A program made the translations under genes and the position numbers. The notes under the pieces are model-generated. The model was not told where the DNA came from and did not search any database. It was given only the letters and a program-made list of their open reading frames with translations. From contig JBHLRO010000001.1 of assembly GCA_048882505.1 (NCBI GenBank), forward strand, positions 270,001 through 302,000: a stretch of 32,000 bases of DNA, in the 5' to 3' direction. This DNA is from Candidatus Thorarchaeota archaeon. Its GTDB lineage: Archaea > Asgardarchaeota > Heimdallarchaeia > Hodarchaeales > Hodarchaeaceae. Shown here in pieces: positions 5,404 to 27,815 of the stretch (position 1 is the first letter of the stretch; each line of letters begins with the position of its first letter).

Positions 5404-7758
5404 ATGGCAGAAGAGTCCGAGAAACCTTCCAAAAAGCTGGTTATTCTTTCCGCAGGGGTTGAACTATCACCTGTCATGGAACAATTACTCCGTGCAGGTC
5501 TTAAATTTACTGTTGGTCTTAACACAACAGCAGATTTTGCACTATACGAGGATGTTGAAAAAGAAAAGGGCAAGGACAAAGAACCGATTGTCGAAGTTTG
5601 GTACCACCATGAAATTGTAAAACTCGCCGCTACTATTGTACCTGACGACCTTACGACTAGTCCACTGACCAAAATATTTACTAGGAATATCGACCAGTCG
5701 CGTATTCCATTGAGTGAGACGGAAATGTTCTTGGTTCAGTGGGTATCTGAAATGCATCGAGCAAATCAAAATCTTTTCGATTTCTTCAAAGCACTAAACG
5801 ATTATGCCCGGAATTCTGTTGAGGTTCATCCTTTAATTCTGGCCCCAGACGCAATCGCAGTTAAAACAGATGGCAATCATGTTCCTTTACGATATTTCCA
5901 GATTACTGGCCTTATTGAAAGGGATGCCAAAACTAAACCTGATATTGAACATCTTCAGGAATTGCTTGTGAAAAGCCAAGAATTAAAGGATAAAAAGAAA
6001 GCTAAAAAACTCATTGAGATTATAGGCGCGGATTTTGACAGAACAGTGCTGCCTGAAGAATTAAAAAGGGCGATAGTTGAAGCAGACGGTCTTCTGTTGG
6101 TCACCGGGGATCCATGCAGTATGGCGTTGATGCTTCTCCACAAAGAGATTACAAAAGCACTATCAAAATCCAGCGCTCAAACCACCATGGTGTGCCCTGG
6201 GCGCCTTACATTTCGGGAACAGTTTATATTGGAACTGTTAGACGTTAAACCGTCTCTTTTGGGAATAGCAGAAATTGGCGATGGGATAGTTGACAATTTA
6301 GTTGTTGGCCCCGAAGATGCTAGTGAGGTCACTGATTTACGATCCAAAGGATTCAATGTCATAATGCAGGATATAGAGGAGATTGAAGGCGATAAAGATC
6401 TTAATTCAATCCTAAAGAGTGTTGGAATCTCACTTAAGGATATATCTATCAAATCTGAGGGCGGGGGATCGATAGGAACCTTAGAGGATTTGGTCACTCA
6501 ATTAACATTCAAGCCCGTGGAAAAGCCGATACTCGATTCGGAAGAAGAAACCAAGAAGATAGAATTGCCGCCGTCTGCCGCTGTGGCGGATATGCAAACG
6601 ACTCTTGAAGTACATGCACAACAGGAACCAGAAAACACTGTCAAATTGCAGGATGTCAACGTGAAAAACTATGACTTTTCTGATCCTACGCTCGCCCTAA
6701 CCGACGATATGGTCGAAGCCTTAATGAAAGAGTTAACAGGAGAGTTTCCACCCTCATCAGTGGTAATAAAAACTGGAAATTCTGACGAGGAAAAGTCTGA
6801 GGTCAAACCCCTACAGTTTGAAAGCCAAGAGGCGTTTACGGAGGCTATTCAGAACTTTTTGAAGCTAACCTCATTCAAGAACCAAGAAGAACTGATCACG
6901 GGAATCGGAGAAGCCATTGCAGAGAACGCGGACATGGCAGCGTATGCAGCGAAGAGACTTACTAGTGCTTTGGAGGTTCACTCTAATACCCAAGAACTTG
7001 TAGACATTTATCTTCGCTATCTCAAGCCTCGCCCCTTAATCTTCATCAAGGAACTGTTGGATTTGCTTTTCAAAGACATTGGAAATCCAGACTTTGTTTC
7101 TTTTTCCCAGCGCGCAGCAATTGTCGTTCAAATGAGAAAGACCGAACTTAAATTTGTTAGTGAACTCATTGAACAAATGATTGAGTTCCAACTCGTAAAG
7201 TCATTGTCACCAAAAGAGAAGGAACATATTAGAACCGTATTGGTAGGAATCACAGCCCGGGATGTCACTCTTCAAAGACGAGCGATTTCAACCTTTTTGA
7301 AACACTACGATGAAACCTCAATGAATGATGAAGTTTGGTTAGGTTTATTGAAATTTGACGCTGCATTAGTCGCTCTAGAAATCGTTGAGCATCAAAGCAA
7401 GAAGGGACTTCATATTGTCCAAGATCTTTCTAAACGACACCTAGGCAGCTTTGGACACGTGATTTATGATGTGTGGACCGCCTACCAAGCTGGCGACATG
7501 CAACATGTGCTCCAGATTGCGGGAACCTTGTCCGACGGACTTCTTCGAAAACAACAGCGTATTGAGCTCGCTGGTCGAATTAAAAAGTTCGGAAGTGTTC
7601 CAATTGAAACACTGTCTCGTAGTGTAGAAATGGATCCAGGAGAATTGGAAGCCCTTGTGTACGAAATGATTAACGAAAATGAATTAAATGCTAAGATTGA
7701 AGTCGTGGAAGGTCGATTGACAATCGTTCAGGTAAATAATGAAGAAGTTGCCGATTAA
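5404..7758 (+). CDS. 784-aa multidomain protein: degenerate CofD/YvcK-like N-terminal domain, acidic linker, helical region, C-terminal PCI-like winged helix
   Basis: aa ~10-335 follow the CofD strand/helix order (KLVILSAG, FTVGLNTTADF, AIVEADGLLLVTGDP, TTMVCP, VKPSLLGIAE..VDNLVVGPED). The C-terminus FGSVPIETLSRSVEMDPGELEALVYEMINENELNAKIEVVEG matches the PCI winged-helix consensus. Confidence 0.65.
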   Translation: MAEESEKPSKKLVILSAGVELSPVMEQLLRAGLKFTVGLNTTADFALYEDVEKEKGKDKEPIVEVWYHHEIVKLAATIVPDDLTTSPLTKIFTRNIDQSRIPLSETEMFLVQWVSEMHRANQNLFDFFKALNDYARNSVEVHPLILAPDAIAVKTDGNHVPLRYFQITGLIERDAKTKPDIEHLQELLVKSQELKDKKKAKKLIEIIGADFDRTVLPEELKRAIVEADGLLLVTGDPCSMALMLLHKEITKALSKSSAQTTMVCPGRLTFREQFILELLDVKPSLLGIAEIGDGIVDNLVVGPEDASEVTDLRSKGFNVIMQDIEEIEGDKDLNSILKSVGISLKDISIKSEGGGSIGTLEDLVTQLTFKPVEKPILDSEEETKKIELPPSAAVADMQTTLEVHAQQEPENTVKLQDVNVKNYDFSDPTLALTDDMVEALMKELTGEFPPSSVVIKTGNSDEEKSEVKPLQFESQEAFTEAIQNFLKLTSFKNQEELITGIGEAIAENADMAAYAAKRLTSALEVHSNTQELVDIYLRYLKPRPLIFIKELLDLLFKDIGNPDFVSFSQRAAIVVQMRKTELKFVSELIEQMIEFQLVKSLSPKEKEHIRTVLVGITARDVTLQRRAISTFLKHYDETSMNDEVWLGLLKFDAALVALEIVEHQSKKGLHIVQDLSKRHLGSFGHVIYDVWTAYQAGDMQHVLQIAGTLSDGLLRKQQRIELAGRIKKFGSVPIETLSRSVEMDPGELEALVYEMINENELNAKIEVVEGRLTIVQVNNEEVAD

Positions 7759-13015: not shown

Positions 13016-13122
13016 TAGGCTGAAAATTCCAAATCATATGCTTGCCTTGACCCAACGCATTTTAAATTGGTGGTGAGGTGGAGCTTAAGGCAAATTGAAC
13101 GATTTTGATAAGAGTACTGGTC

Positions 13123-14565
13123 GTGATTATTATCGAAGATTTACTTATTTTTGCGGCAAGAGAAGCTGAAGGGTCTGGAGCTTTCATTGAAGCGCGTTAT
13201 GAGGATTTAACCCTAAAAACCCTTGTTAGAGAAAAAGATACACTAAAAGAAGTAATCAATAACAGGCGATTGGGAATAGCAATAACTGCGTATTACCAGG
13301 GAGTTCAAGGTTTTTCTTTTACAGCGTCCGCAGAAAAAAAAGATATAAGTGAAACTGTCGCCAGGGCAATAAAAATCGCAAAGGTTAGCGAACCCACAGC
13401 TCGCTTGAGGCTACCCTTTGATACTGACGCTAATTTACCCGACGTACGAACCCCGTTGGCTCCCAAACATATCAAAAAGCATCCACTTGACTTCGATTTA
13501 GAGTTCAAGAAAGAAATGGTAGATCGTGCTGTTAATACGGTACTATCTTTCAAGAAACCTGAAGCAAATTCAGTTATTGGGAGATACGGAGAGTTAACTG
13601 GCATTAAAATGCTGTACACCTCTGATGATAGGATGGCGGTTTGGAATCCCCTAATTACGGATCTTCGCATAGGAGCTATCGTTAAAGATGATCGTGGAGA
13701 ATTGCTTCGCGCTGGTGGCGGGAGTGGTGGAGCTTGGGGATTGGATTATTGGGATGGGAACGACAACACTCCAGAGAAACTAGCGGAAAATGCCTATAAT
13801 TGGGCCGTTGAAAAATGTGGTGCAAAAAAACCACCTGCAGGGGAGCATCGAGCGCTTACCGATCCTAAACTATCCGCAGTACTTGTACATGAAAGTTTTG
13901 GTCATCTATGTGAGGCCGACGGTGTTGTCGAAAATACTAGTCCGCTTGCTGGAAAGATTGGGAAAAAGATAGCTACGGAAGAAGTTTCGGCCATAGATGT
14001 AGGTGTTATGGACGGAACAGCAGGTGGATTATATCTACCATTCGATGATCAAGGTGTTCCGACCGCTCGGACGGTTTTAGTTGAAAAAGGAATACTTAAG
14101 TCCTACCTACATAATCGTGGAACGGAACATTATCTCCCTGAAACGGGAGGTTTGAGCGGTAACGCTCGTGCCATTACTTATCGCTTTCCCCCGATTCCAC
14201 GCATGAAAAACACCATTTTCTTGCCTGGATCAGTTAAAACTGAGGAAGAAATGCTAGAACTTCTTGACACAGGTATCTACTCGATTGATACCACGGGAGG
14301 ATCTGTGGCGTTAGGTGAATTCCAGTTTTTCGCAACCCGGGGATACTGGATTGAAAACGGAGAAAAGAAATATCCTCTAAGAGATCATCTGCTAACCGGA
14401 CATATTCTACAGGCGTTGCAAAAAGTTGAAGCATTAAGCCAGGATTCTATTCTTCTATCTGGATATTTTGGAGGTTGTGGAAAAGCTGGTCAATTCCCAC
14501 TTTCAGTTGGAATGGGCGCCCCTCATATGCTGTTTTCGGGAATTCAAATCGGTGGGGAAACTTAA
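13123..14565 (+). CDS. tldD: TldD metalloprotease subunit (start uncertain, 13105-13132)
   Basis: HExxxH zinc motif VLVHESFGHLCEAD, PFDDQG, SGNARA, PIPRMKNT and C-terminal GCGKAGQ. Confidence 0.93.
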   Translation: MIIIEDLLIFAAREAEGSGAFIEARYEDLTLKTLVREKDTLKEVINNRRLGIAITAYYQGVQGFSFTASAEKKDISETVARAIKIAKVSEPTARLRLPFDTDANLPDVRTPLAPKHIKKHPLDFDLEFKKEMVDRAVNTVLSFKKPEANSVIGRYGELTGIKMLYTSDDRMAVWNPLITDLRIGAIVKDDRGELLRAGGGSGGAWGLDYWDGNDNTPEKLAENAYNWAVEKCGAKKPPAGEHRALTDPKLSAVLVHESFGHLCEADGVVENTSPLAGKIGKKIATEEVSAIDVGVMDGTAGGLYLPFDDQGVPTARTVLVEKGILKSYLHNRGTEHYLPETGGLSGNARAITYRFPPIPRMKNTIFLPGSVKTEEEMLELLDTGIYSIDTTGGSVALGEFQFFATRGYWIENGEKKYPLRDHLLTGHILQALQKVEALSQDSILLSGYFGGCGKAGQFPLSVGMGAPHMLFSGIQIGGET

Positions 14566-14586
14566 GACTAGTTAGAGGTGATTGTT

Positions 14587-15975
14587 TTGCCGAAGATACA
14601 ATTTGAAGAACTAAGGGACTACCTACAGCGGTTAGCAGAAGAAGGGGTGAAATATGGCCTAGGTTCATATCCTAAAGCTGAGATCGAGGTCTATCTTGCC
14701 TACGGGTATGAAGCAGAAGTTGCAATTGAACAGGGAATTCCTAAAGCTAAGGATGGAGCGTCAGGTGGAGTTGGAGTCCGAATCGCATTGGAAAAAAACC
14801 TGGGTTTTGCAGCGGCATCAGGACTTAGTAGAGATGTGATTAAATCGACGGTAGATGAATCATATGTTACAATGCGAGCTATTTCCGCCCCTGATAACAA
14901 ATTTGAGGGCTTTGCAGATCCAGTACAAAAAAATTCGAAAGATGGTATAATTTTTAAGCCGATTCTTGACATTACTTCAGCTGATCTTATTGAACGAGTA
15001 AATACAATCACTGCGGAAGCGAATGGAATTGACAGCAGGATTGTATCAATTTCTGGTGAATCTGGAGTCTCTTATGGCGGTTTTTCGGTCACAAACTCTC
15101 GTGATGTAAATGTAGCAAGTACTATGGCTGCCAGTTATATAGTAATCGAGTGTATCGCTCAGGAACAAGAAAAAAGGAAAGTAGGCTTCGAATTTGATGT
15201 TTCACGGGCCAGAGAGCTAGAATGGAATGATCTAGCTGAACTGGCTGCAAGGCATGCACTCGATCTTCTTGATACGCGAAAACTTTCAAAATCGGAAGTT
15301 CTTTCTACCGTGTGGGAACCACGTGTAAGTTCCACATTCATTCTTAATAGTTTGGCCAGGGCATTGAACGGCAGACAGGTTGTCGAAGGACGATCACGCT
15401 TTGCAGATAGAATCGGAGAAGAAATTGCTCATCCAAACTTTGGATTGGTGGATAACGGTCAACTCCCTGAAGGACTAAATACGAGTGCATTTGATGCGGA
15501 AGGCATACCCAGGCAGGAAACCGTACTTGTAGAAAGGGGTACTCTTCGAAGCTTTTTATTCGATTCTTACTACGCCAGAATCCATGGAACTGAATCTACG
15601 GGAAATGCAACACGTTCAGGACAAGAATCATTTTCAAATACTCCGAATGTAGGGATAACAACTCTCGATGTCCCTTCAGGCACCTCTAGTACTGCTGATG
15701 CCATCTCAAACATTGATGAAGGAATCTATATTCAGGATTATATTATGGGGTTATCACATTCTGACCCAATCAGCGGGGATTTTTCTGCTGTATCTCCACA
15801 AAGCTCCTTAATCAAGAATGGTGAAATTGTTGGTGCTTTGGAGCCGATCACAGTTGCGGGGAATTTTTATACGGCATTATTAAATATCCAGGCCATTTGC
15901 AATGACGCAACGCTCACACCTTGGAACATCAAAATCCCCACCATGATCATTGACGGTTTCACGGTCTCTGGTTAA
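14587..15975 (+). CDS. pmbA: PmbA/TldE subunit
   Basis: TldD paralog lacking HExxH, with FDAEG, STGNA and ITVAGNFY motifs. Lies directly downstream of tldD. TTG start 6 nt after GAGGTG. Confidence 0.92.
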   Translation: MPKIQFEELRDYLQRLAEEGVKYGLGSYPKAEIEVYLAYGYEAEVAIEQGIPKAKDGASGGVGVRIALEKNLGFAAASGLSRDVIKSTVDESYVTMRAISAPDNKFEGFADPVQKNSKDGIIFKPILDITSADLIERVNTITAEANGIDSRIVSISGESGVSYGGFSVTNSRDVNVASTMAASYIVIECIAQEQEKRKVGFEFDVSRARELEWNDLAELAARHALDLLDTRKLSKSEVLSTVWEPRVSSTFILNSLARALNGRQVVEGRSRFADRIGEEIAHPNFGLVDNGQLPEGLNTSAFDAEGIPRQETVLVERGTLRSFLFDSYYARIHGTESTGNATRSGQESFSNTPNVGITTLDVPSGTSSTADAISNIDEGIYIQDYIMGLSHSDPISGDFSAVSPQSSLIKNGEIVGALEPITVAGNFYTALLNIQAICNDATLTPWNIKIPTMIIDGFTVSG

Positions 15976-16028: not shown

Positions 16029-17870
16029 TCATTCCTGAGAATCATATATTGGAAGAGATAGGTAAAAAGTTGTCCCCCTGGGTGAATTCTCTTCAAACCA
16101 GATTTTACCTTGATATGCTTGAACAATATTGTATGATATTGACAACCCAAAGCCGCTCCCTCGTTTTTCGGGTGGCCCAATTGATGCAAACGGTTTGAAA
16201 ATTTCGTCCTGACCATTGTGTGGTATTCCAGGGCCATTATCGCTGATTCTAAATAACCACTGTCGTTGGTTCTCTTGTTTTCTTATCTCTACCTCTATAG
16301 TTCCCCCATTTGGGCTGAATTTAATGGCATTGTCCAATAGGTTTCGAAGGACACTATTAATCCTATAGTCTGCCGGAACCAAGATTTCCTCCAGATCTGA
16401 AGGCCATTTTTCTTTCAGTTGGAGTTCCTTCTTCTCCAACTCTATATTATAGGTTCTTTTTATAACGCTAAATTCCTTTCGGAGGTTCATCGGTTTTAAT
16501 TCTAGCTCACTATAATCATGTGTATCAAGAGTAACAACGTATTCCAGGGTATGATCAATGATATCTTCCATTCCTCTGGCTCTAAATGCTATTGATTCAA
16601 GATATCGCTCAGTTTCTAATGAAGTATTTTTAACGGCAAGGTTGGAACTCAATAAATCGGCGAAACCTCGGATTACATGTATAGAATTCTTCAAATCATG
16701 AGAAATGATGTTTAACAGGCTTTGTTTAAACTCATTACTTGTCTTTAGGAGGTTAGTAACCTCTCGTTCAGAGGTTATGTCCTGAATGAAATATATGTAA
16801 CCAATGTGACTATCTCCCTCGTGGAGTGCTTCTATAAGAATCCGAAAATAACTTTTACGAGATTGATCTGGCAGGGTTCCTTCGATTTCCAAATTAATTT
16901 TTGCGTTAGGATCGCTAGAGAGGGTTATCAACCCCTTTTCGATATCCTGAATTTGGTCAATGTAGGGAGTCAGTCTCCTCTGTTTAGCAAGAAATGAGAA
17001 AAAATTCATCCCTATGGAAGTCTCCCGAGACTCAGTGAAAGGCGGATCGGTAATATAAGTCCAACCTTGGGGATTTACGTCAATTATCCTATGATCTAAG
17101 GTGGTAATTATTATGCCCAGATTCGTGGTTTTAAATATCAAATTGTGTGCGGCGGGTAGAATACCCAGCAGATCGAAATTATACATACCGATGAGGAAGA
17201 TTGAAGTGAAAACCATAAATGTTAACGGCGTTATATTCAGGTAAATGGAGAAAGGGAATAATTCGATAATATCGATTATTAGGCCTGCCAATATAGCTGA
17301 CACAGAGGCTAGAAAAGTAATAACCTGCTTTTTATAGAGAGGATGCGGGTTTAACAAGTAGGAACGTACAACCATAAACACGGCAACTATCACAAACGAA
17401 GCGGATATTATTATATGTGCCCAAAGGAATGGACCGGGATTATATGTCAGTGATGGAAACGCAGCCTCTTCGTAAAGCTCAATATGGTCAAAAATCAATT
17501 CATGAGATGCATTTGTCAGTACCAAAACGTAAATAAGCGTTCCTGGAACAAAGAAAGGAATAAGACGTCGTCGATTTAGGAAAAAATACTCCGCATAGTG
17601 AGTAAAGGATAAACTGAATAAGAAAAAGAAAACGGGGAGATACATGATACTGAAATATTGAATATACAACCAAAAAACCATAGTTGAGTAATCTACAGCC
17701 AAAATCTCAAAAATGTAGCCAATTCCCCACCAAGAAGTGGTTCCAGTCATTAGGACGAACATATAATTGGTTCTAGTACGCGGGTAAAACGCAAACACGT
17801 AGAGCGTCAATAGACTTACAATGATAGCAGAGAGAATATAAGGAATAACTGCCATTGTGAACTCATACAC
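16029..17870 (-). CDS. Sensor histidine kinase: HisKA_7TM-type membrane domain, PAS-like domain, HisKA, HATPase_c
   Basis: Seven-TM N-terminus. H-box ISHDLKN, N-box NLLDNAIKFS, G1 DNGPGIP, F-box IFKPF, G2 GSGFGLSI. Confidence 0.92.
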   Translation of the reverse strand: MYEFTMAVIPYILSAIIVSLLTLYVFAFYPRTRTNYMFVLMTGTTSWWGIGYIFEILAVDYSTMVFWLYIQYFSIMYLPVFFFLFSLSFTHYAEYFFLNRRRLIPFFVPGTLIYVLVLTNASHELIFDHIELYEEAAFPSLTYNPGPFLWAHIIISASFVIVAVFMVVRSYLLNPHPLYKKQVITFLASVSAILAGLIIDIIELFPFSIYLNITPLTFMVFTSIFLIGMYNFDLLGILPAAHNLIFKTTNLGIIITTLDHRIIDVNPQGWTYITDPPFTESRETSIGMNFFSFLAKQRRLTPYIDQIQDIEKGLITLSSDPNAKINLEIEGTLPDQSRKSYFRILIEALHEGDSHIGYIYFIQDITSEREVTNLLKTSNEFKQSLLNIISHDLKNSIHVIRGFADLLSSNLAVKNTSLETERYLESIAFRARGMEDIIDHTLEYVVTLDTHDYSELELKPMNLRKEFSVIKRTYNIELEKKELQLKEKWPSDLEEILVPADYRINSVLRNLLDNAIKFSPNGGTIEVEIRKQENQRQWLFRISDNGPGIPHNGQDEIFKPFASIGPPEKRGSGFGLSISYNIVQAYQGKIWFEENSPRGTTFYLSLPIYDSQE

Positions 17871-18095: not shown

Positions 18096-19976
18096 TCATT
18101 CTTTAATTTTTGGGATCCCAGGTATTTCGCAAATGAAAATAGATCCAGCGGGTTTGTTGTCCTGCACCCAAATTCTGCCGTTGAACGACTCAATGATTTC
18201 TTGAACTATTGTTAAACCAAGACCAGTTCCGAGCTTCGTTTTAGAATCGCTGAATGTCGTGAACGGCTTAAATATTTCTTCTTTTAGCGTGTCAGGTACA
18301 CCTGGCCCTTGATCTGAAAAGCTGATCTGCCAAATTTCTGGAAATTGGATGACGTCGATCTTGATTTCGGAATTTGAGGGAGAAAACTTGACGGAATTAT
18401 GAAGAAGGTTAAGGAAAGCACTCTTTAAAGCGAAGTTTGCAGGTACAAGTGCCAAATCCTTTTCAGGAGGCTCAAAAACAACGTTTAACTCTTTGTCGTT
18501 AATTTCGGGCTCTAATTCCTTTAATACTTGAAGAAGTAAATCTGATACGTCTACCGAGACGATCTCCTGCGATTTGATATCTAAATCAATTTTAAGCCAT
18601 TTGGTCACATCTTCAATGAGGTTCAAAGTAGTTGTTGTCTTTGCTTCTATTGCTGCTAAACTCGTCTTAATATCGGAAGTATCCTGAGAGGAACTTCTTA
18701 ATGATGCCAGGGCCAGCTCGGAATATCCGCTCATCGTCATTAAATGATTCTTCAGGTCATGTGATAGAAGTTTGAGGATAGTACCGGTTAGTTTTTGCTT
18801 CTTTTGGAGACTGGTTTCCGCTCTTTTTCTATCCGTAACGTCACGTAGAATTACCAAGAATCCTAGGAGCTTATCCTTCCTTCTCAAACCCGTTGCTAGG
18901 AGATCATAGTATCGATTTTCAAGACCAGTAACCTTGTGTGGATTTCTAAGGAGGATTTCTGTACTACTTACTATTGTTTCTCCGGCCTCGATCTGCTCTA
19001 AACCAATTTGAAATAATGTAGCATAATAGGCGCGCTCCTGAGCGGCTTCCTTTAACACAGAGACGACGTTTTTTCCATATATTTCCTGAGGCTGGTGTTT
19101 GGGGACGAGAATACGATAACCCGCTGTGTTTATGTCAACAATTCGCCATTCCTGATCTAAAACAAGCAATCCATCCAAAACTTCCTCGAAGACATAATTG
19201 CGCGCAATGGGTGCAATATCTAGGAATCCTGTTTCAAAAATAGCGTACGCGAAGAGAATATAGGCAATTACAAACATTATTGGCGTCAAATCAATGAAAG
19301 CTATCGGTGGAATGAGGTTTGTAACCCGAATGATATTGCCAATGAATGGAAAAAGAAGTCCAGAGAACACTATTATTATTTGTTTTTGGTAAAGATAATT
19401 AACTGATTTTCTTCGTTGAACCACATATGCCTGGATGAGGAATATCATTCCAGCTAGTAATAGGATATATGAGTACAGAGTGTGAGAATAAAAAGCAAGT
19501 CCATATTCATGTTCCACCGATACAAACTCAGGAGTTATTATTAGTTGTGACTGAAGGTAAAACATGTTGTGCATGTCATTGGTAACTAAAACGAGGTAAT
19601 GGAGTAGGGGAGGGAGGAATAAGAGCCAAAGAAGTGGTTTGGTTACAGGGTTTCCTCGTTTCGTAAATATATACGCAAAAAAGAGAAAAAAAGGGGGAAC
19701 TGCAATAATTCCAATATATTCAATAAAGATCCACAAAAACTTAGTGGGAAGGTCTGTTGCCGCAAATTCCAAGGTATACCCGCCACACCAAATCGCCGTA
19801 GAAATAACCAATGCAATGAAATAGCCAGAATACATTGATCGGGGTCTAAAGAAAAGTGAGTAAAATAAGAGAAAAATTGCACAGACCGTTACGACACCCA
19901 ATACTAATACGAATACGGAGATTTGGTAACCCAAAGCTTTGTCCCGTTCCGTTACTCCGCTATGAAGAGTAACCAA
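18096..19976 (-). CDS. Sensor histidine kinase, tandem paralog with the same 7TM-PAS-HisKA-HATPase architecture
   Basis: H-box LSHDLKN, N-box NLLHNSVKFS, DQGPGVP, IFKPF and GTGLGLTI. The 7TM region aligns by eye with the neighbouring kinase. Confidence 0.92.
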   Translation of the reverse strand: MVTLHSGVTERDKALGYQISVFVLVLGVVTVCAIFLLFYSLFFRPRSMYSGYFIALVISTAIWCGGYTLEFAATDLPTKFLWIFIEYIGIIAVPPFFLFFAYIFTKRGNPVTKPLLWLLFLPPLLHYLVLVTNDMHNMFYLQSQLIITPEFVSVEHEYGLAFYSHTLYSYILLLAGMIFLIQAYVVQRRKSVNYLYQKQIIIVFSGLLFPFIGNIIRVTNLIPPIAFIDLTPIMFVIAYILFAYAIFETGFLDIAPIARNYVFEEVLDGLLVLDQEWRIVDINTAGYRILVPKHQPQEIYGKNVVSVLKEAAQERAYYATLFQIGLEQIEAGETIVSSTEILLRNPHKVTGLENRYYDLLATGLRRKDKLLGFLVILRDVTDRKRAETSLQKKQKLTGTILKLLSHDLKNHLMTMSGYSELALASLRSSSQDTSDIKTSLAAIEAKTTTTLNLIEDVTKWLKIDLDIKSQEIVSVDVSDLLLQVLKELEPEINDKELNVVFEPPEKDLALVPANFALKSAFLNLLHNSVKFSPSNSEIKIDVIQFPEIWQISFSDQGPGVPDTLKEEIFKPFTTFSDSKTKLGTGLGLTIVQEIIESFNGRIWVQDNKPAGSIFICEIPGIPKIKE

Positions 19977-20126: not shown

Positions 20127-20828
20127 ATGATGTTAATATCCTATATAACGCTGTTTGGACTCATTGCACTCATTTCAATTCTCGTAAAGAGTGTTAAATC
20201 TGGCGAGGTCGTAATTGATAACATTATTCTTCAAAAATTAACCAGGATTAACGTTCTGCTGAAAATGACGCCTGCAGGTCTAGCGACAATCTTTGCGTAT
20301 TTATGGATAACAGATAATCCTTTCTACCAGTTTGGCCTTGCTGGTGCATTACTTTTTTGTTTTTTTGGCGATTTTGGTATCGATAAACATTTCTTATTGG
20401 GATTTGGGCTTTTTCTCGTGGCTCAATTAATGTTCACGGTAACCTTCTTGGTGGAAACATTCACTCTCGGGACCCCCGTCTATCTTACAGTTACTGGCGT
20501 CATCCTCATAGCATTGGTTCTAATTTACATGGTTTTCTATCTTAATTACCTTCGTTCATCGCCGTCTGGACTTGGAAATTACCTTATACCGATAATGTTA
20601 TATTGTATCGGGATCACCCTTATGGTAGTATCTTCCATCATCTTTTGGTTCAGTTTAAACGAAGTTTACGCTGGATTTATTGTGCTAGGGGCTATTTCTT
20701 TTGTTATATCAGATTCTTTTTTGGGGATCCATCGTTTTCATCATGAAATCACGTGGAGAGAATTCAAAGTCACTAGCACCTATTATCTCGCTTTACTTCT
20801 ACTGAGTTTGAGCGCAATCTATGTATAA
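20127..20828 (+). CDS. yhhN: YhhN / TMEM86 lysoplasmalogenase-like membrane protein
   Basis: LLKMTPAG, GDFGID..FLLGFGLFLVAQ, IMLYCIGI and GAISFVISDSFLG motifs; about 8 TM segments. Confidence 0.85.
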   Translation: MMLISYITLFGLIALISILVKSVKSGEVVIDNIILQKLTRINVLLKMTPAGLATIFAYLWITDNPFYQFGLAGALLFCFFGDFGIDKHFLLGFGLFLVAQLMFTVTFLVETFTLGTPVYLTVTGVILIALVLIYMVFYLNYLRSSPSGLGNYLIPIMLYCIGITLMVVSSIIFWFSLNEVYAGFIVLGAISFVISDSFLGIHRFHHEITWREFKVTSTYYLALLLLSLSAIYV

Positions 20829-20920: not shown

Positions 20921-23900
20921 ATGGCTACATTTGATGTTTCTAGGCAAAAAAAGGAAATAAAGGGTCATTCAATCGAGTTAGATGAATTAATCTCTAGATT
21001 AAATACAGATAAGGATACGGGGCTTACCAATGATGAAGCGGCGCGTCGCCTTGAGGAGTATGGTGTCAATGAGATTCCGAAACCTCAACAATCATTTTGG
21101 CAGGTGTATCTAGCTCCCCTACTCAACACTCTCATTGTAGTTTACCTTGCTATGACCACTGTAATCTGCTTACTGGCGTTGATTTACCTTTTTATTAATC
21201 CCAATGATACTTCAATTTGGTGGACCGCTCTTCAATGGTTGATCATTGTTGCTATCAACTTCGGAATTGCAATAGTTCAGCAGGCGCGGGCGCAAAAGAA
21301 GATTGAAGCCCTTCAAAAGCTGGCAGCGCCAGAAGCAAGAGTAATCAGAGAAGATAAGGAGTCGGAGATTGATACAATATACCTAGTTCCAGGTGACGTC
21401 GTTAAGATCGCCCAGGGTGATAAGATACCTGCTGATTGCAGGATACTACGATCCAGTTCACTAAGGGTTAATGAAGCGAGTTTAACGGGTGAAAGTGTTC
21501 CAAGCACCAAGGTTGAAGATGGTGATCACACGTTTCCAGAGGACACACCAATAGGATCTCGTAAAAATATGGTGTATAATGGGACATTCGTCACGATGGG
21601 ATCAGGGATCTGTATCGCTGTTAATACGGGAGGAAATACCGAATTCGGAATGATTAGTCGGGAATTAGAAGAATTAAATACTGGAGATATTCCCATTAGG
21701 GCCAAAGTTAACGTAATCGGGAATTATCTAACTTTCGGTATGCTAATCGTGTTTAGTCTATTATTAATATATCAAGCGACTCTTATATTAAATAATATTA
21801 AATTTGGGCTCTACAGGACAGAATTAGAACTGTTGGGAGATGTTATATTCCAGATTAGTAATATGATCATTAAAGCCATGAGTGTTGTCCCCATTAACAT
21901 ACCATTGCTGACTACTATCGTTCTCCTTACGGGGGTATTGGCCATGGCAAAACGTAACGTAATTATTCGAAATTTGGCAGCAATAGAAAGTCTTGGACGT
22001 ATTTCAATCCTATGTAGCGACAAAACTGGCACCATAACGACAGGACAAATGACAATTCAGCGCTTATGGGATGCAAGTGAGGATAAATTCTATGAAATTA
22101 CGGGAATAGGCTATGCACCCGAGGGAAGTATCATTCCTCTTGCCAAATCAAAAACAGAGCCTAAGAAGCCTGCGTCAGAGAAACTAGACCCCGTAATCAT
22201 AGATCCAAATTCCTCATTAGGCTTCTTGATAATTGGTGGCATGCTTAACAACGATTCCGAAATTGTATCAGAAAAAGTAGGGGATATCCTAGTATACTCA
22301 GGAACAGGTTCTCCTACCGAATCCGCTCTTCTAGCACTATTTAATAAAACGGGGCTTTCAAAAGATAATATTTTAAGAGAATTTCGCCTTGTACGGGAGT
22401 ACCCTTTTGATTCAAGTTTTAAAAGGATGTCTAAGGTCTTCAAGGTCGACGAAAAAGAACAACATCTTGTTTTTTGCAAAGGAGCAACCGAGGTAGTTCT
22501 TGAAAGGTGCCAGAATCTGGGATATGCAGCTCATGCACGTCCCCTTAAACCTAGGGATCGGAAGAAGATTCTAGGCCACATGGAAGAGCTAGCCGCCAAA
22601 GGATTTCGCGTATTATCTTTAACGTACAAAGAAGTAGCCGAGCTACCAGCTAAGAATGATGAAGAAAGAGATTTAATAGAGGAGGGGCTTTCATACCTTG
22701 GATTTGTTTCAATTCTGGATCCACCTAGGGAACGGGTTAATGATTCTGTTGTGGAAACCATTAGCGCCGGAATAACGCCAATTATGATTACAGGTGACTC
22801 CTCTACCACAGCACAAGCGATCGCAACAGAAATTGGAATGCTATCTCGGCCACACCATCAGATCCATGAAGGACACGAGGCAGATGATCTAAATGAAACA
22901 GATTTCTTCGATACGCGAGTATTCGCGCGTGTGGCACCAAAAGACAAGCAGATTATAGTTGAACGATATCAGGAGAACACCCGCGTTGTTGCAATGACGG
23001 GAGATGGAGTAAACGATGCTTTGGCATTATCCATGTCGGACGCGGGAATTGCTATGGGAATATCAGGCACAGAGGTATCAAAACAGGCAGCAGACCTTGT
23101 AATCGCGGATGACAGTTTTAATTCGATTGTCACAGGAATCCGTGAAGGACGGGCCCTCTTTCAACGCATCCGCGTAATAATTTTCTTCTACATCTGTGTA
23201 AATTTGGCAGAAGCAGCAGCGTATATCGGGTCAACCTTTATTTCTGGCTTTATTCTCAATTTTGAACTCATGGACACACTCCAACGGGCATATATATTTG
23301 GAATCGCCCACACCTTTCCTCCCTTGGCATTAATTTTTGATAAAATCCCACGTGACATAATGGATCGTGATCCAATTGATTCAGCAGGAATTTTTAATAA
23401 AAAATTAGCAGCGACAATGCTTATTACATCTATTACACTTGCCACTAGCATTTATTTCTTCTATTTCACCACTTTCTTTGGTTGGATTCCAGTGAATGCT
23501 ATCAATATGAGTGGATTTGTACCGCTTTTTCAAACGGACCCCGAATGGATCGTTACACCGACCATTCGTAAACTTGCGCCCATGACATGGGAACATGCAA
23601 AAGCACGAACATTTATGCATACTATCCTTTATCTAACCATTCCCCTAATTGTCTTATCAATACGACGAGTAGATAAATCACTGTTTAACGCAATTAGGGA
23701 AGATTCCTGGTGGCCCACCTACGTATTTGTATTTGCGATTATCCCTTTCCACATGTTTCTTATGTATTTTCCCGTTATCCAAGAAATTCTAAGTACACTA
23801 TCATTTTATCTAGATATCATTGCCCTAGATCTAGTAGATTGGATAATTTGCCTCATAGGAGCTCTAATTCCAGTAATCGTGCTAGAAACTGCAAAGTGGT

Positions 23901-23929
23901 TAATACGCGCTAGTGGAAAATACTATTAA
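20921..23929 (+). CDS. P-type ATPase with P2A (SERCA-like) scaffold and non-canonical transport site
   Basis: VNEASLTGES, CSDKTGT (D367), FDSSFKRMS, KGATE, DPPR, MITGD, FARVAPKDK and MTGDGVNDALAL are all intact; about 10 TM segments. M4 reads VPINIP. Confidence 0.95.
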   Translation: MATFDVSRQKKEIKGHSIELDELISRLNTDKDTGLTNDEAARRLEEYGVNEIPKPQQSFWQVYLAPLLNTLIVVYLAMTTVICLLALIYLFINPNDTSIWWTALQWLIIVAINFGIAIVQQARAQKKIEALQKLAAPEARVIREDKESEIDTIYLVPGDVVKIAQGDKIPADCRILRSSSLRVNEASLTGESVPSTKVEDGDHTFPEDTPIGSRKNMVYNGTFVTMGSGICIAVNTGGNTEFGMISRELEELNTGDIPIRAKVNVIGNYLTFGMLIVFSLLLIYQATLILNNIKFGLYRTELELLGDVIFQISNMIIKAMSVVPINIPLLTTIVLLTGVLAMAKRNVIIRNLAAIESLGRISILCSDKTGTITTGQMTIQRLWDASEDKFYEITGIGYAPEGSIIPLAKSKTEPKKPASEKLDPVIIDPNSSLGFLIIGGMLNNDSEIVSEKVGDILVYSGTGSPTESALLALFNKTGLSKDNILREFRLVREYPFDSSFKRMSKVFKVDEKEQHLVFCKGATEVVLERCQNLGYAAHARPLKPRDRKKILGHMEELAAKGFRVLSLTYKEVAELPAKNDEERDLIEEGLSYLGFVSILDPPRERVNDSVVETISAGITPIMITGDSSTTAQAIATEIGMLSRPHHQIHEGHEADDLNETDFFDTRVFARVAPKDKQIIVERYQENTRVVAMTGDGVNDALALSMSDAGIAMGISGTEVSKQAADLVIADDSFNSIVTGIREGRALFQRIRVIIFFYICVNLAEAAAYIGSTFISGFILNFELMDTLQRAYIFGIAHTFPPLALIFDKIPRDIMDRDPIDSAGIFNKKLAATMLITSITLATSIYFFYFTTFFGWIPVNAINMSGFVPLFQTDPEWIVTPTIRKLAPMTWEHAKARTFMHTILYLTIPLIVLSIRRVDKSLFNAIREDSWWPTYVFVFAIIPFHMFLMYFPVIQEILSTLSFYLDIIALDLVDWIICLIGALIPVIVLETAKWLIRASGKYY

Positions 23930-23949: not shown

Positions 23950-24852
23950 TTATTGCAATAATTCTGGAAAGAAATGTTCAAGAATCCAATCTCCAACCGG
24001 CGGATACCGATGTATTGCAGGCCGCCAGGTCATTTTAGACTCGATCATATCCCATGGTACATCCAGAGTGTCAGGTATTGCTCTCTGTGCAAACTGACTA
24101 AGTCGTTTGAGAGTATTATCAAACGGATATGTCATGTGATCACAGGGGAACTCTTTCTGCGTCAAATTCAGATCGTTGGAGATTTCGGCCATTGGGAGAG
24201 AAGCAGAGGTGGTCGGGACAATCCAATCGTATTTTCCAATCGCGTTCAGCCATTGGAGATTTGGGTTCAATATCGGATCCTGATTTAAGCGTGATAATAA
24301 TTGGCTTTTTGGCGTGAGCTGAAAAAAACCAAGTCCCAAATCGGGGGGTAAACGCTCTTTACTTAATACCTGTTGAACGGAATTGAAAAACTCCTCCATT
24401 TTGGAGCGATTTCCCCGCGTTATGCCGTGATTCGGAACTGTAAGGAGCACGATTCCATATAGCATTTCTTCTATTCTCGTTAATTCAATCGAATGTCGGA
24501 AATTTGGGCTTGTCATGACCCGTGTGATTATCCCTCCCATGCTATGTGATATAATGGTAACCCGATGTTGTTTTTTTTCATATATTAGTTCGAGAGATGT
24601 CAAGAGGTCATTTTCGGCAAGATCAAGAATATTGGCATAGACAGCATTGCTAAGTGTAAGGCTCCAGCAATCGATTCCCTTCAAACTCAAGTAATTCCCT
24701 AAAGAATCTTCATAGCGAAACCAAATCTCCCCTGAACTTCCAAAGCCATGTACAAAAAGGATAGGTGGGCCTTTAGAAGAAGGATTGTGATGAACTAACT
24801 TTGCAATACCAAATTCAGTCTTAATTTGATATATTACGGCATCTAGGGACAT
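23950..24852 (-). CDS. Alpha/beta-hydrolase, lipase/PGAP1-like
   Basis: Oxyanion VHGFGS, nucleophile elbow SHSMGG, TVPNHG, acid KYDWIVP and candidate catalytic His in CDHM. Confidence 0.85.
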   Translation of the reverse strand: MSLDAVIYQIKTEFGIAKLVHHNPSSKGPPILFVHGFGSSGEIWFRYEDSLGNYLSLKGIDCWSLTLSNAVYANILDLAENDLLTSLELIYEKKQHRVTIISHSMGGIITRVMTSPNFRHSIELTRIEEMLYGIVLLTVPNHGITRGNRSKMEEFFNSVQQVLSKERLPPDLGLGFFQLTPKSQLLSRLNQDPILNPNLQWLNAIGKYDWIVPTTSASLPMAEISNDLNLTQKEFPCDHMTYPFDNTLKRLSQFAQRAIPDTLDVPWDMIESKMTWRPAIHRYPPVGDWILEHFFPELLQ

Positions 24853-24944: not shown

Positions 24945-25433
24945 TTAGAACAGCTTGGGAGGCCATAATCGGAACCATAATGGCCCCAAAATGCTTGATC
25001 TCTTGATAGTCCCCAATTGTCGGCTATCTGTACTATACGGGAGATTGTCTCCTAACAAAAAGTATGAATCCTTCTCAATATGAAATTTTATCTCATGATG
25101 AAGGGTGGAGCGATTTGAGGAAAGAGTTATATTTGTTGTAGCAGCCTCAATTCTTATTTCTGTCTTGTTTATGGAAACATATTCCCCAGGGAGTCCTAGA
25201 ATGCGTTTTATTAAGATTTTCGACCCAGTTTTGAAATGACAGAATCCAACGATCAGCATCCTTTCTATAGGATGAGTGTCGAAATAGTTTAAATCCAGTA
25301 GAACATATTGATCAGCAAGAATTGTTGGCTCCATTGAATGGCCATGAATGCGAAGCCATTTCCCTCTGAACCGCCCAGTGGAAAGTCTGATAAACGTATC
25401 TTTGAGTTTCTTACGACCTTTAATCTGCAGCAT
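24945..25433 (-). CDS. sodX: Nickel-SOD maturation peptidase (S26 family)
   Basis: GHSMEPTI (Ser), LIKRI (Lys) and GDNLPYSTDSR. No TM anchor. Lies immediately downstream of sodN on the same strand. Confidence 0.85.
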   Translation of the reverse strand: MLQIKGRKKLKDTFIRLSTGRFRGKWLRIHGHSMEPTILADQYVLLDLNYFDTHPIERMLIVGFCHFKTGSKILIKRILGLPGEYVSINKTEIRIEAATTNITLSSNRSTLHHEIKFHIEKDSYFLLGDNLPYSTDSRQLGTIKRSSILGPLWFRLWPPKLF

Positions 25434-25483: not shown

Positions 25484-25960
25484 TTATTTATGCAGAACTA
25501 GTTCAGCACCCGCACCTGCATAAGGAGCTTTAACTCTTACACTTTCTATACCTTTGATCTTCCAGAATATTATGGCAAATTCCTGAACAGAGTTGAGCAG
25601 CTGAGCGGCGATTTCCAAGTTGATTTCTTGCCGGGCTTGGCTTGCCTGTTGCATAATCCTTGGAACCAGATCTGAAATTTCAGGAAACTGTTCTACGTGA
25701 ACAGGTTTGATAAAATCTCCCCAAATTACTCTGATTTCATGTTTAACCAGTTCCGCATGTTCCTCTTTCGTTGCAATATACCGACTAAACTTGTGAGCAT
25801 TGGCCTGATCAGTTCTGTTCGGTAAATCATTGATGAGATTAACCATTCTGATAACAGTATGAGCAGCTACTTGGGCCAAATGCGGATCGTAAATCCCACA
25901 CGGAATATCGCAATGGGCATAACCTATCTCGGGTTTTAGGATTTTTTCTATTATTTTCAT
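25484..25960 (-). CDS. sodN: Nickel superoxide dismutase precursor
   Basis: 15-aa leader ending GYA, then a perfect Ni-hook HCDIPCGIYDP (25883-25915). KEEHAE..K and IWGDFIK motifs follow. Confidence 0.95.
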   Translation of the reverse strand: MKIIEKILKPEIGYAHCDIPCGIYDPHLAQVAAHTVIRMVNLINDLPNRTDQANAHKFSRYIATKEEHAELVKHEIRVIWGDFIKPVHVEQFPEISDLVPRIMQQASQARQEINLEIAAQLLNSVQEFAIIFWKIKGIESVRVKAPYAGAGAELVLHK

Positions 25961-26186: not shown

Positions 26187-26909
26187 TTAGGGATCAGATA
26201 ATTTTGTTGGCCGAACACATAGGATCTTAGAAAGTTGGACAGGAATATTTTCTCTCCGATCATTCATTGCAACGATTACTCCCTTATCACTCTTTTCTTC
26301 GACCTGGAGTTCAATTCCTACTTTATTGATGCCAAAGCTTTCCAATGTACGAGCTGTATCGTCGAAATGGGACGATACACGAGTTAATGTAACTAACGTT
26401 CCATTGGGAATATCTAGAAGGCAAGGATCGTTACATCCCAGATCTTTGACCTCCCCATGAGGAATAGGCATGCCAAAGGGAGTTTTCTTGGTTCCTAATT
26501 TCTTATAGATAAAATCAGCCAGGACGTCAGAAATACCATGTTCAATAAGACAAGCCTGCTGATGGAGTATGTTAAACGGAACATCAAAGATTTCGTATAG
26601 CATAGCTTCTGCGAGTCGGTGATTTCTAGCGATTCGTCTTGCTGCTTGGAAGCCCTTTTTGGTTAGTTTCATGCCTTCATATGGCTTATAATCCACATAT
26701 TCCTCTTTTTCCAACTTACGGCGCACTATATTTGTCAGCTGGGTTTTCCCTATTTTCCCACCTAGTCTATTGAGGATTTCTCCCATTTTAATGCGCTGAT
26801 CGTCTGATAAGGTATCTACCGATAGATCAAACAGACATTCCATTATTTCTTGCTCGGGAACGCGAAGACCCTCGGTGGGACTGTGCATTGCGGGCAATCT
26901 TATCTCCAC
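26187..26909 (-). CDS. DtxR/MntR family metal-dependent regulator with C-terminal FeoA/SH3-like domain (start uncertain)
   Basis: YKPYEGMKLTKKG, RNHRLAE, HQQACLIEH (DtxR HDEACRWEH equivalent) and PFGMPIP. Confidence 0.9.
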   Translation of the reverse strand: MEIRLPAMHSPTEGLRVPEQEIMECLFDLSVDTLSDDQRIKMGEILNRLGGKIGKTQLTNIVRRKLEKEEYVDYKPYEGMKLTKKGFQAARRIARNHRLAEAMLYEIFDVPFNILHQQACLIEHGISDVLADFIYKKLGTKKTPFGMPIPHGEVKDLGCNDPCLLDIPNGTLVTLTRVSSHFDDTARTLESFGINKVGIELQVEEKSDKGVIVAMNDRRENIPVQLSKILCVRPTKLSDP

Positions 26910-27038: not shown

Positions 27039-27815
27039 ATGTCGTTCGGGCCATCTACATTAATACATCTCCGTATTCTTCTATATTTACTATTGACAGT
27101 ATTCGTTCTAATATTATCCTTCTTTCCTGAAGGTTGGTTAATTTATTGGATAGTCAACACGGAAAATTTGGATTTAATGCACTATCTCCTTTCCCCATTA
27201 TACCTTTTTTTGACATACTGTGTTACAGTTGTATTTTTTGGAGTTGTCCACAGCCAAATCATCATCCGAGGGTTGCGTTTACTCCCATATCGGGTAGAAC
27301 CAGGTATCTACCCCCATCATTCAGCAATGGGCAGGGCAGTAGGAATTCGTATTGCCGCGGATGGTATTTTCAAGTCAATGCTTAAAGTTTTCACCTTTCT
27401 TCCGTTTATCTGGGGGATTTTTCTTTTTCCATACGGAATGAGATTATATGGGTTACGAGTTGGAAAGAATTCTCATATTGCCACCAGAACATACATCGAA
27501 GGAGCAGGATTGGTTGAAATTGGGGAGGATACTTTTGTAGGCTACAATGCAGTCGTAACGGGACATCGGAATGAAGATCGTGCAATCAAGGTAAACCCTA
27601 CCAAAATTGGAAATCGTTGTCTCGTCGGTGCTTATTCAGTTGTGGCCAATGGAGCTGAAATGGAAGATGGATCGGTGTTAGGAGCCATGAGTGGGCTTCT
27701 TACGATGAAAATTCCCCAAGATGAGGTATGGGCTGGAGTCCCTGCAAGATTCCTAAAGAAAAAGGGAGAATCATTAGGCGATAATTCGACGTCTCAACAC
27801 CATGATATTAAGTAA
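27039..27815 (+). CDS. Membrane-anchored hexapeptide-repeat (left-handed beta-helix) acyltransferase
   Basis: N-terminal TM segments followed by LbH repeats (GLRVGKNSHI, VEIGEDTFVG, TKIGNRCLVG, MEDGSVLG) and WAGVPAR. Confidence 0.85.
   Translation: MSFGPSTLIHLRILLYLLLTVFVLILSFFPEGWLIYWIVNTENLDLMHYLLSPLYLFLTYCVTVVFFGVVHSQIIIRGLRLLPYRVEPGIYPHHSAMGRAVGIRIAADGIFKSMLKVFTFLPFIWGIFLFPYGMRLYGLRVGKNSHIATRTYIEGAGLVEIGEDTFVGYNAVVTGHRNEDRAIKVNPTKIGNRCLVGAYSVVANGAEMEDGSVLGAMSGLLTMKIPQDEVWAGVPARFLKKKGESLGDNSTSQHHDIK

Follow-up and report, generated by a model that had tools for sequence, protein, structure and literature searches.

Ca2+-ATPases of the P2A type, among them Listeria LMCA1, SPCA1, and SERCA, belong to the superfamily of P-type ATPases. 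Structures of SERCA in the E1·2Ca2+ state have established two Ca2+ sites: N768, E771, T799, D800, and E908 make up site I, and E309, N796, D800, and backbone carbonyls of transmembrane (TM) helix M4 make up site II. Another group is P6, a prokaryotic P2-like offshoot typified by mycobacterial CtpE, where a different residue (Ile in CtpE) takes the place of the otherwise invariant M6 Asp and for which altered transport behavior has been proposed (PMC10654040). P6 is the only P-type family added since the P1–P5 scheme was drawn up, and a 2023 review by Palmgren lists P1 to P6, expects further prokaryotic families, and leaves Asgard pumps unmentioned (PMC10654040). Separately, a survey of the Asgard transportome counted orthologs of putative Ca2+ ATPases in each of the five Asgard proteomes and took them to support Ca2+ signaling. 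Here, we describe a P-type ATPase gene in a 32,000-nucleotide (nt) stretch of Candidatus Thorarchaeota archaeon DNA (the window: GenBank assembly GCA_048882505.1, contig JBHLRO010000001.1, positions 270,001 to 302,000 of the forward strand). The encoded protein very probably does not pump Ca2+, because its canonical Ca2+ ligands have largely been replaced, and it belongs to a distinct, ancient family that has so far come from Asgard archaea only.

The gene is a single open reading frame (ORF) without internal stops whose translation yields 1002 amino acids (aa), and it carries the full P-type set of Pfam domains (Cation_ATPase_N, E1-E2_ATPase, Cation_ATPase, Hydrolase, and Cation_ATPase_C). 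Motif coordinates (Table 1) were confirmed by re-translating the DNA. The original prediction, made from the letters of the window, held that the catalytic core is intact, and TGES, DKTGT, and GDGVND were indeed all found. With DKTGT, a TGES-type loop, GDGxND, and the E1-E2 and HAD domains present, the protein is a member of the P-type superfamily, and the integrity of all core motifs predicts that it is catalytically competent. The resemblance to P2A-like pumps extends further: they have the same domains, the same 10-TM layout, the same three catalytic motifs, and the same 43-residue spacing between the M4 Pro and the phosphorylated Asp, they share the N..E pair in M5, and they provide the best sequence matches (bit scores of 354, 346, and 329 in the Protein Data Bank [PDB]). 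The prediction of a SERCA-like scaffold (P2, SERCA/PMR1-like) is borne out by the domains, the M5 pair, and the spacing.

It is in the cation-binding region that this protein departs from the P2A plan. Against the Listeria Ca2+-ATPase, HMMER aligns M4 without gaps ('vvpinipllttivll' over 'aaipealssivtivla'), and M6 likewise ('ifgiahtfpplal' over 'inlvndslpaial'). The same correspondences are found in a MAFFT alignment of 240 sequences, comprising 140 full-length relatives and 100 PEGLP-type pumps, the latter including the two canonical paralogs from the same genome. Among the PEGLP pumps, the residue opposite Ile325 is Glu in all 100, that opposite Phe793 is Asn in 99, that opposite Ala796 is Thr in 94, and that opposite His797 is Asp in 91; N761 and E764 fall on the N..E pair of M5, and Ile907 falls on the Gln/Glu position of M8. 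Both alignments thereby uphold the predicted placement of Ile325 at the E309 position and the three M6 replacements (N796 to Phe, T799 to Ala, and D800 to His), and the second also confirms that the M5 pair is retained. The M8 claim holds for this protein, with one correction: Ile907 does occupy the Glu/Gln position, but this is a trait of one subclade, and 102 of the 140 relatives have Glu there. The 34 relatives with Ile907 correspond to the subclade of the query (at least 62% identity), and all of them have His900, two helical turns above.

Conservation across relatives indicates that these replacements are a family trait and not a private degeneration. An M4 sequence resembling MPI[NS]IPLLTT occurs in all 118 best matches that retain the M4 region, down to 42% identity, and these matches carry annotations as Hodarchaeales or as Heimdall-, Thor-, Odin-, or Promethearchaeota. 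When 1.84 billion cluster representatives were searched exhaustively, the motif broadens to P-[IVFWLM]-[NS]-[ILF]-[PV] and continues to ~425 bits, with classical PEGLP pumps intermixed from ~470 bits. Within the 140-member family, P324 is invariant, residue 325 is always hydrophobic, and position 326 is Asn in 125 members and Ser in 15, the latter having exactly PISIP. E764 in M5 is likewise invariant, N761 is found in 133 members, and His797 in M6 in 139. Across the family, the E309 position is Ile, Val, Phe, or Trp, and the N796 position is Phe, Val, or Tyr. Thus, PE(G)L in the M4 of P2A pumps has given way to P-I-N/S-I, and NxxTD in M6 to F/V..A/T-H. M1 and the cytoplasmic extension of M2 have likewise lost polar and acidic residues that are conserved among PEGLP pumps (Gln to Pro66, Glu to Gln121, and Glu to Gln125). 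Since the signature is conserved in 140 relatives down to ~33% identity, it lies far beyond chance. The refuting condition named with the original prediction, that orthologs retain PEGL, fails: all of them have PI[NS]IP.

The family is widespread in Asgard archaea. A six-frame search detected high-scoring family members in ~97 of 151 Asgard genomes and in 12 of 27 GTDB families, where a genome was counted as positive on a match above ~500 bits or a fragment at ~45% identity. All family members with a source name are Asgard, other phyla not having been searched directly, and the 327-member ESM Atlas cluster carries the label 'commonest Promethearchaeota'. In several Asgard lineages, particularly GTDB family f13, two copies lie head to tail, with ~43–45% identity to the query for one copy and ~38–41% for its partner (examples in Table 1). 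These pairs point to an old duplication, with possible subfunctionalization.

Phylogenetic trees recover the family as a monophyletic group with a long stem and support of 100 in the Shimodaira–Hasegawa-like approximate likelihood ratio test (SH-aLRT) for a quick tree and 100/100 for a careful one. A split with support 87/94 sets the family and the PEGLP pumps apart from both E. coli MgtA (P3B) and the P1B pumps of the same genome. Hence, in trees of the family with PEGLP, MgtA, and P1B pumps, it groups with the prokaryotic P2A-like (PEGLP) Ca2+-ATPases. Candidate outgroups from a plasmid tblastn search bore generic annotations only. Unconstrained trees put it inside the PEGLP pumps, beside sequences from Thermoprotei (Thermoproteota) and Methylarchaceae. 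Forcing all PEGLP pumps into one group, however, improved the log-likelihood by ~88 units, and the resulting tree passed the approximately unbiased test without rejection (p 0.88 and 0.98), so a claim that the family is nested within the PEGLP pumps was dropped, and both a sister and a nested position stand.

Profile models and structure agree on P2 as the nearest class. The best-scoring NCBIfam hidden Markov models (HMMs) are those for P2A and P2D, every one far under its cut-off: 402 bits against 703 for TIGR01116 (P2A), 424 against 798 for TIGR01522, and 419 against 645 for TIGR01523 (P2D). The two P2A-type cut-offs are thus missed by ~300–375 bits; the canonical paralogs reach 655–727 bits with the same pair of models, close to the cut-offs though still under them. 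The P3A model TIGR01647 gives 319 bits (cut-off 615), compared with 431–471 for the ordinary paralogs. The P5 model TIGR01657 gives 235 bits (cut-off 618), and the M4 sequence PINIP does not correspond to the P5 motif PP(E/D/A/V)LP (PMC6884021). With the AlphaFold (AF2) model of the query (predicted local distance difference test [pLDDT] score 88, predicted template modeling [pTM] score 0.81), the top 50 Foldseek hits are all P2 pumps. An unfiltered structural scan returned Z scores of 20–32 for all 10-TM P-type classes, the highest being 31.9 for the P2D pump PfATP4 at 24% identity; these Z scores track conformational state more than kinship. Structure-based identity falls from P2A (28–30%) through P2C (26%), P2D (24%), P2B (23%), P3 (21–22%), and P5 (18–20%) to P4 (16–19%).

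What might such a pump transport? Both side-chain ligands unique to Ca2+ site II are hydrophobic or aromatic in the family, and an Asn or Ser has been gained at position +2 of the M4 motif (P-I-N/S). In contrast, polarity persists at four of the five site-I positions: N761 and E764 are retained, His797 substitutes for the bridging Asp, and most members have E907. On this pattern we favor, as the probable explanation, a P2-derived pump that has lost site II and carries a small cation other than Ca2+ in a single, rebuilt site-I pocket. Such a pump would run a normal E1/E2 phosphoenzyme (Post-Albers) cycle and bind one small cation, with the Glu764/His797 pair as the key element of the site. The original prediction offered an unusual cation moved via His797 as a minor alternative, and this proves to be the best fit to the evidence; its view that Ca2+ transport is improbable also holds.

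Within this reading, H+ or another monovalent cation is a tentative choice of substrate, and a borderline transition metal (Mn2+, Fe2+, Zn2+, Ni2+, or Co2+) a somewhat fainter one. The H+ option draws on the P3A H+-ATPases (AHA2 and Pma1), a possible work-alike by analogy. P3A pumps have P-I-A-M-P in M4, so P4 pumps are not alone in having Ile at the E309 position. The two families share this Ile, the P-I-x-x-P pattern, and a lean site consisting of a carboxylate, an Asn, and a base; Glu764, Asn, and His797 could act like the Asp-Asn-Arg triad of P3A. A lean site of one carboxylate, Asn partners, and a titratable base, combined with P-I-x-x-P and no acidic funnel, would amount to the P3A design for H+ or another monovalent cation. 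However, the carboxylate of the query lies in M5 rather than M6, the base is the M6 His rather than an M5 Arg, and the M6 Asp that serves as the proton acceptor in P3A is itself replaced by that His. Against AHA2, the structural Z score is 29.4 at 21% identity. For the metal option, an Asp-to-His change in a site otherwise built of oxygen ligands would shift preference away from hard cations, and most members could offer two carboxylates, a His, and an Asn.

Several points weigh against a rebuilt cation site. The choice of substrate comes from ligand chemistry, with side-chain geometry taken by homology to SERCA. His is unusual as a ligand for alkali cations, and in the query's own subclade, which lacks the M8 Glu, the one remaining carboxylate makes a lean site for a divalent metal. 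Neither a metal-binding domain nor a conserved metal-regulator neighbor was found (25 loci). The family has also lost the acidic funnel on the cytoplasmic side, as have P4 and P5B pumps, which take no cytoplasmic cation; in SERCA, the counterparts of the replaced M1 and M2 residues, E55/Q56/E58/D59 and E109, border with E309 the path by which Ca2+ enters from the cytoplasm. The family has no conserved metal-binding domain, and a His-rich patch of the query, PHHQIHEGHEAD (22850-22885, + strand), in a cytoplasmic loop of the phosphorylation (P) domain, is private to this ATPase and is not conserved among its relatives.

The loss of the funnel bears directly on the original suggestion that the pump is flippase-like or intermediate between P2 and P4. 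In a transporter of lipids or other bulky or organic substrates (flippase- or P5B-like), convergent with or kin to P4, a central gate would be formed by the hydrophobic side chain at the E309 position, and the head group of the substrate would bind from outside in the E2P state. Neutral residues near the cytoplasmic entry are what one would expect of a pump with no cytoplasmic cation substrate, and P-I-[N/S]-[I/L] resembles the PISL of P4 pumps (ATP8A1, Drs2, and Neo1): the Ile and its small polar neighbor match, most closely in the 15 PISIP members, while the Leu and the surrounding residues differ. In the window, moreover, the gene lies between genes for a YhhN-family protein and a PGAP1-like hydrolase. 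The hallmarks of P4 pumps are DGET in the actuator (A) domain, PISL in M4, and an insert in the linker between TM4 and the P domain (PMC11460456). The query and essentially all of its relatives have TGES rather than DGET, and the M4 Pro lies 43 residues from the phosphorylated Asp in 140/140 family members, as in 100/100 PEGLP sequences, so there is no P4-type insert. The P4 model TIGR01652 gives 100 bits (cut-off 431), equal to the ordinary paralogs (98–112), and structural identity, a comparison that the original prediction had proposed, is lowest to P4 and highest to P2A. The P4 substrate site is not known to contain acidic residues, unlike the family, which keeps Glu764 and His797 in the membrane; P4 pumps are also restricted to eukaryotes and mostly depend on Cdc50. 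A search for Cdc50 (PF03381) gave no match in the query's genome, but control genomes gave none either. The YhhN and hydrolase genes are not conserved neighbors, and no recurring partner gene appears in the 25 loci. All direct P4 and P5 tests that were run were negative. The P2/P4 proposal is therefore not supported; the pump is probably not a lipid transporter, and flippase-like transport of any bulky substrate is improbable. There is an even slimmer chance that the family members are not cation pumps at all, having an organic cation or the head group of a lipid as their cargo instead, or that they are the surviving prokaryotic stem of a eukaryotic family without the M4 Glu (P4, P5B, or P3A).

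Two further proposals keep the substrate inorganic. A K+ (or Na+/K+) pump could fill an apparent gap in Asgard K+ uptake by binding external K+ in the E2P state, the mode of P2C pumps and of ACU pumps in fungi, an idea that overlaps with the monovalent-cation part of the rebuilt-site reading. TrkH, KdpB, Kup, and 2-TM K+ channels (Ion_trans_2) were not found in the query's own genome, which is 94.5% complete, and known systems are scarce among the 151 Asgard genomes (TrkH/KtrB in 1, as a fragment; neither KdpA nor Kup in any; Ion_trans_2 channels in 16). The literature lends this some weight: few or no Asgard K+ systems were listed in the transportome survey (PMC7997004), and P2-type ATPases for K+/Na+ uptake are described in fungi (PMC6884021). 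However, the ~54 of 151 genomes without the detected family equally lack known K+ systems, so complementarity between the family and those systems, which we considered, was rejected. K+ sites, moreover, are normally built entirely from oxygen ligands, and the family lacks the Glu in M4 and the Asp in M6 that P2C pumps use. A K+ pump is thus unlikely. A Ca2+ or Mg2+ pump with an unconventional single site is also a poor prospect. Database labels call members Ca2+-transporting ATPases, P2A Ca2+ models are the best-scoring HMMs, and N761, E764, and (mostly) E907 of site I are retained. Yet those models are missed by wide margins relative to their curated cut-offs, and the residues at E309, N796, T799, and D800 are all substituted. 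The same genome also encodes two canonical Ca2+-type paralogs, whose motifs are PEGLP or PEGLA, S-x-N-x-x-E, and W-[VI]-N-L-[VL]-T-D-G, as well as two CorA genes (Mg2+); the two paralogs probably carry out ordinary Ca2+ pumping in this organism. To our knowledge, the single-site Ca2+ pumps described so far (PMCA, SPCA, and LMCA1) all keep site II, not site I.

What are the implications of a rebuilt single site? The family's signature is the opposite of that of known single-site P2 pumps: site II has been deleted and site I retained, apparently rebuilt around a His. P6 pumps keep PEGL, which the family has lost, and replace the M6 Asp with a hydrophobic residue rather than His. No description of this Asgard pump family was found in open-access papers and preprints, and full-text searches for PINIP, PISIP, and PINLP returned species names only. 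The family is a new kind of variant, and arguably a new subfamily, among P2-like P-type ATPases. Both large and old, it shows strict conservation and occurs in the archaea that stand nearest to eukaryotes; with its substrate identified, a textbook pump family would gain another class of specificity. The substrate could also bear on how Asgard membranes are energized and provisioned, including the scarcity of known K+ uptake systems. If any family members are among the surveyed 'Ca2+-ATPases', the support for Asgard Ca2+ signaling would be overstated.

Table 1. Coordinates of the ATPase gene, its motifs, other genes of the window, and tandem copies in other Asgard genomes.
Feature	Position	Strand	Remarks
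P-type ATPase gene, Asgard 'P-I-N/S + M6-His' family	20921..23929	+	1002 aa, stop included in coordinates
M1 Ala65-Pro66	21113..21118	+	Pro66 in 135/140 family members; Gln in 94/100 PEGLP pumps; neutralized cytoplasmic entry region
Gln121, M2 cytoplasmic extension	21281..21283	+	In 133/140 family members; Glu in 98/100 PEGLP pumps
A-domain dephosphorylation motif TGES	21485..21496	+	P2/P3 form
M4 motif PINIP	21890..21904	+	Ile325 at SERCA E309 position; Asn326 at G310 position
Phosphorylation motif DKTGT	22019..22033	+	Asp367, 43 residues past M4 Pro
Hinge motif GDGVND	23000..23017	+	
M5 N761-L-A-E764	23201..23212	+	SERCA N768/E771 (site-I ligand positions) retained
M6 F793-G-I-A796-H797	23297..23311 (His797 23309-23311)	+	SERCA N796 to Phe, T799 to Ala, D800 to His
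M8 His900..Ile907	23618..23641	+	Ile907 at SERCA E908 position
PCI-domain protein gene	5404-7758	+	784 aa, C-terminal PCI domain
TldD/PmbA metallopeptidase gene	13105-14565	+	Adjacent pair with next row
TldD/PmbA metallopeptidase gene	14578-15975	+	
Histidine kinase gene	16029-17870	-	N-terminal HisKA_7TM; tandem with next row, one of the two with PAS
Histidine kinase gene	18096-19976	-	N-terminal HisKA_7TM
YhhN-family membrane protein gene	20127..20828	+	92 nt upstream of ATPase
Alpha/beta-hydrolase (PGAP1-like) gene	23950..24852	-	Convergent to ATPase
Nickel superoxide dismutase (Sod_Ni) gene	24945-25433	-	
S26 signal-peptidase-like gene	25484-25960	-	
DtxR/iron-dependent-repressor-like gene	26187-26909	-	
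Hexapeptide-transferase gene	27039-27815	+	Divergent from DtxR-like gene
Tandem-pair example	G040:C32:125909-131715		
Tandem-pair example	G129:C86:1979-7764		
Tandem-pair example	G025:C86:1223-7492		

The lipid-related neighbors of the ATPase gene are a local feature. A 'cttatag' sequence ~25 nt upstream of the ATPase ATG looks like an archaeal TATA box, which would imply a leaderless transcript, and the gap between the YhhN gene and the ATPase gene is compatible with co-transcription. For comparison, the ORFs flanking 25 family loci (five encoding contigs and 20 loci from Asgard genomes) were clustered all against all. No flanking family occurred in more than 5 of the 25 loci, and the few recurring neighbors reflect lineage-specific synteny. 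The YhhN and hydrolase genes were considered as parts of a system with the ATPase and rejected: their adjacency is not conserved at orthologous loci. ZnuABC and Kdp each occur once in this sample; on metagenomic contig L016, kdpABC adjoins a family member. The DtxR-like gene and its hexapeptide-transferase partner lie ~2–5 kb from the ATPase in the window and at three close loci (66% identity, Hodarchaeales-like), but not at distant ones. Just upstream of the YhhN–ATPase pair, and divergent from it, are the two HisKA_7TM kinases, and a homologous kinase flanks the close loci L012 and L013.

Other genes in the window are of interest in their own right. The Sod_Ni gene is directly upstream of the S26 peptidase-like gene, which matches the arrangement of a nickel superoxide dismutase with its maturation protease and is notable for an Asgard archaeon. 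Farther away, the TldD/PmbA metallopeptidases form an adjacent pair, and the protein with the C-terminal PCI domain, a signature of the proteasome, COP9, and eIF3, is a eukaryote-like signature protein.

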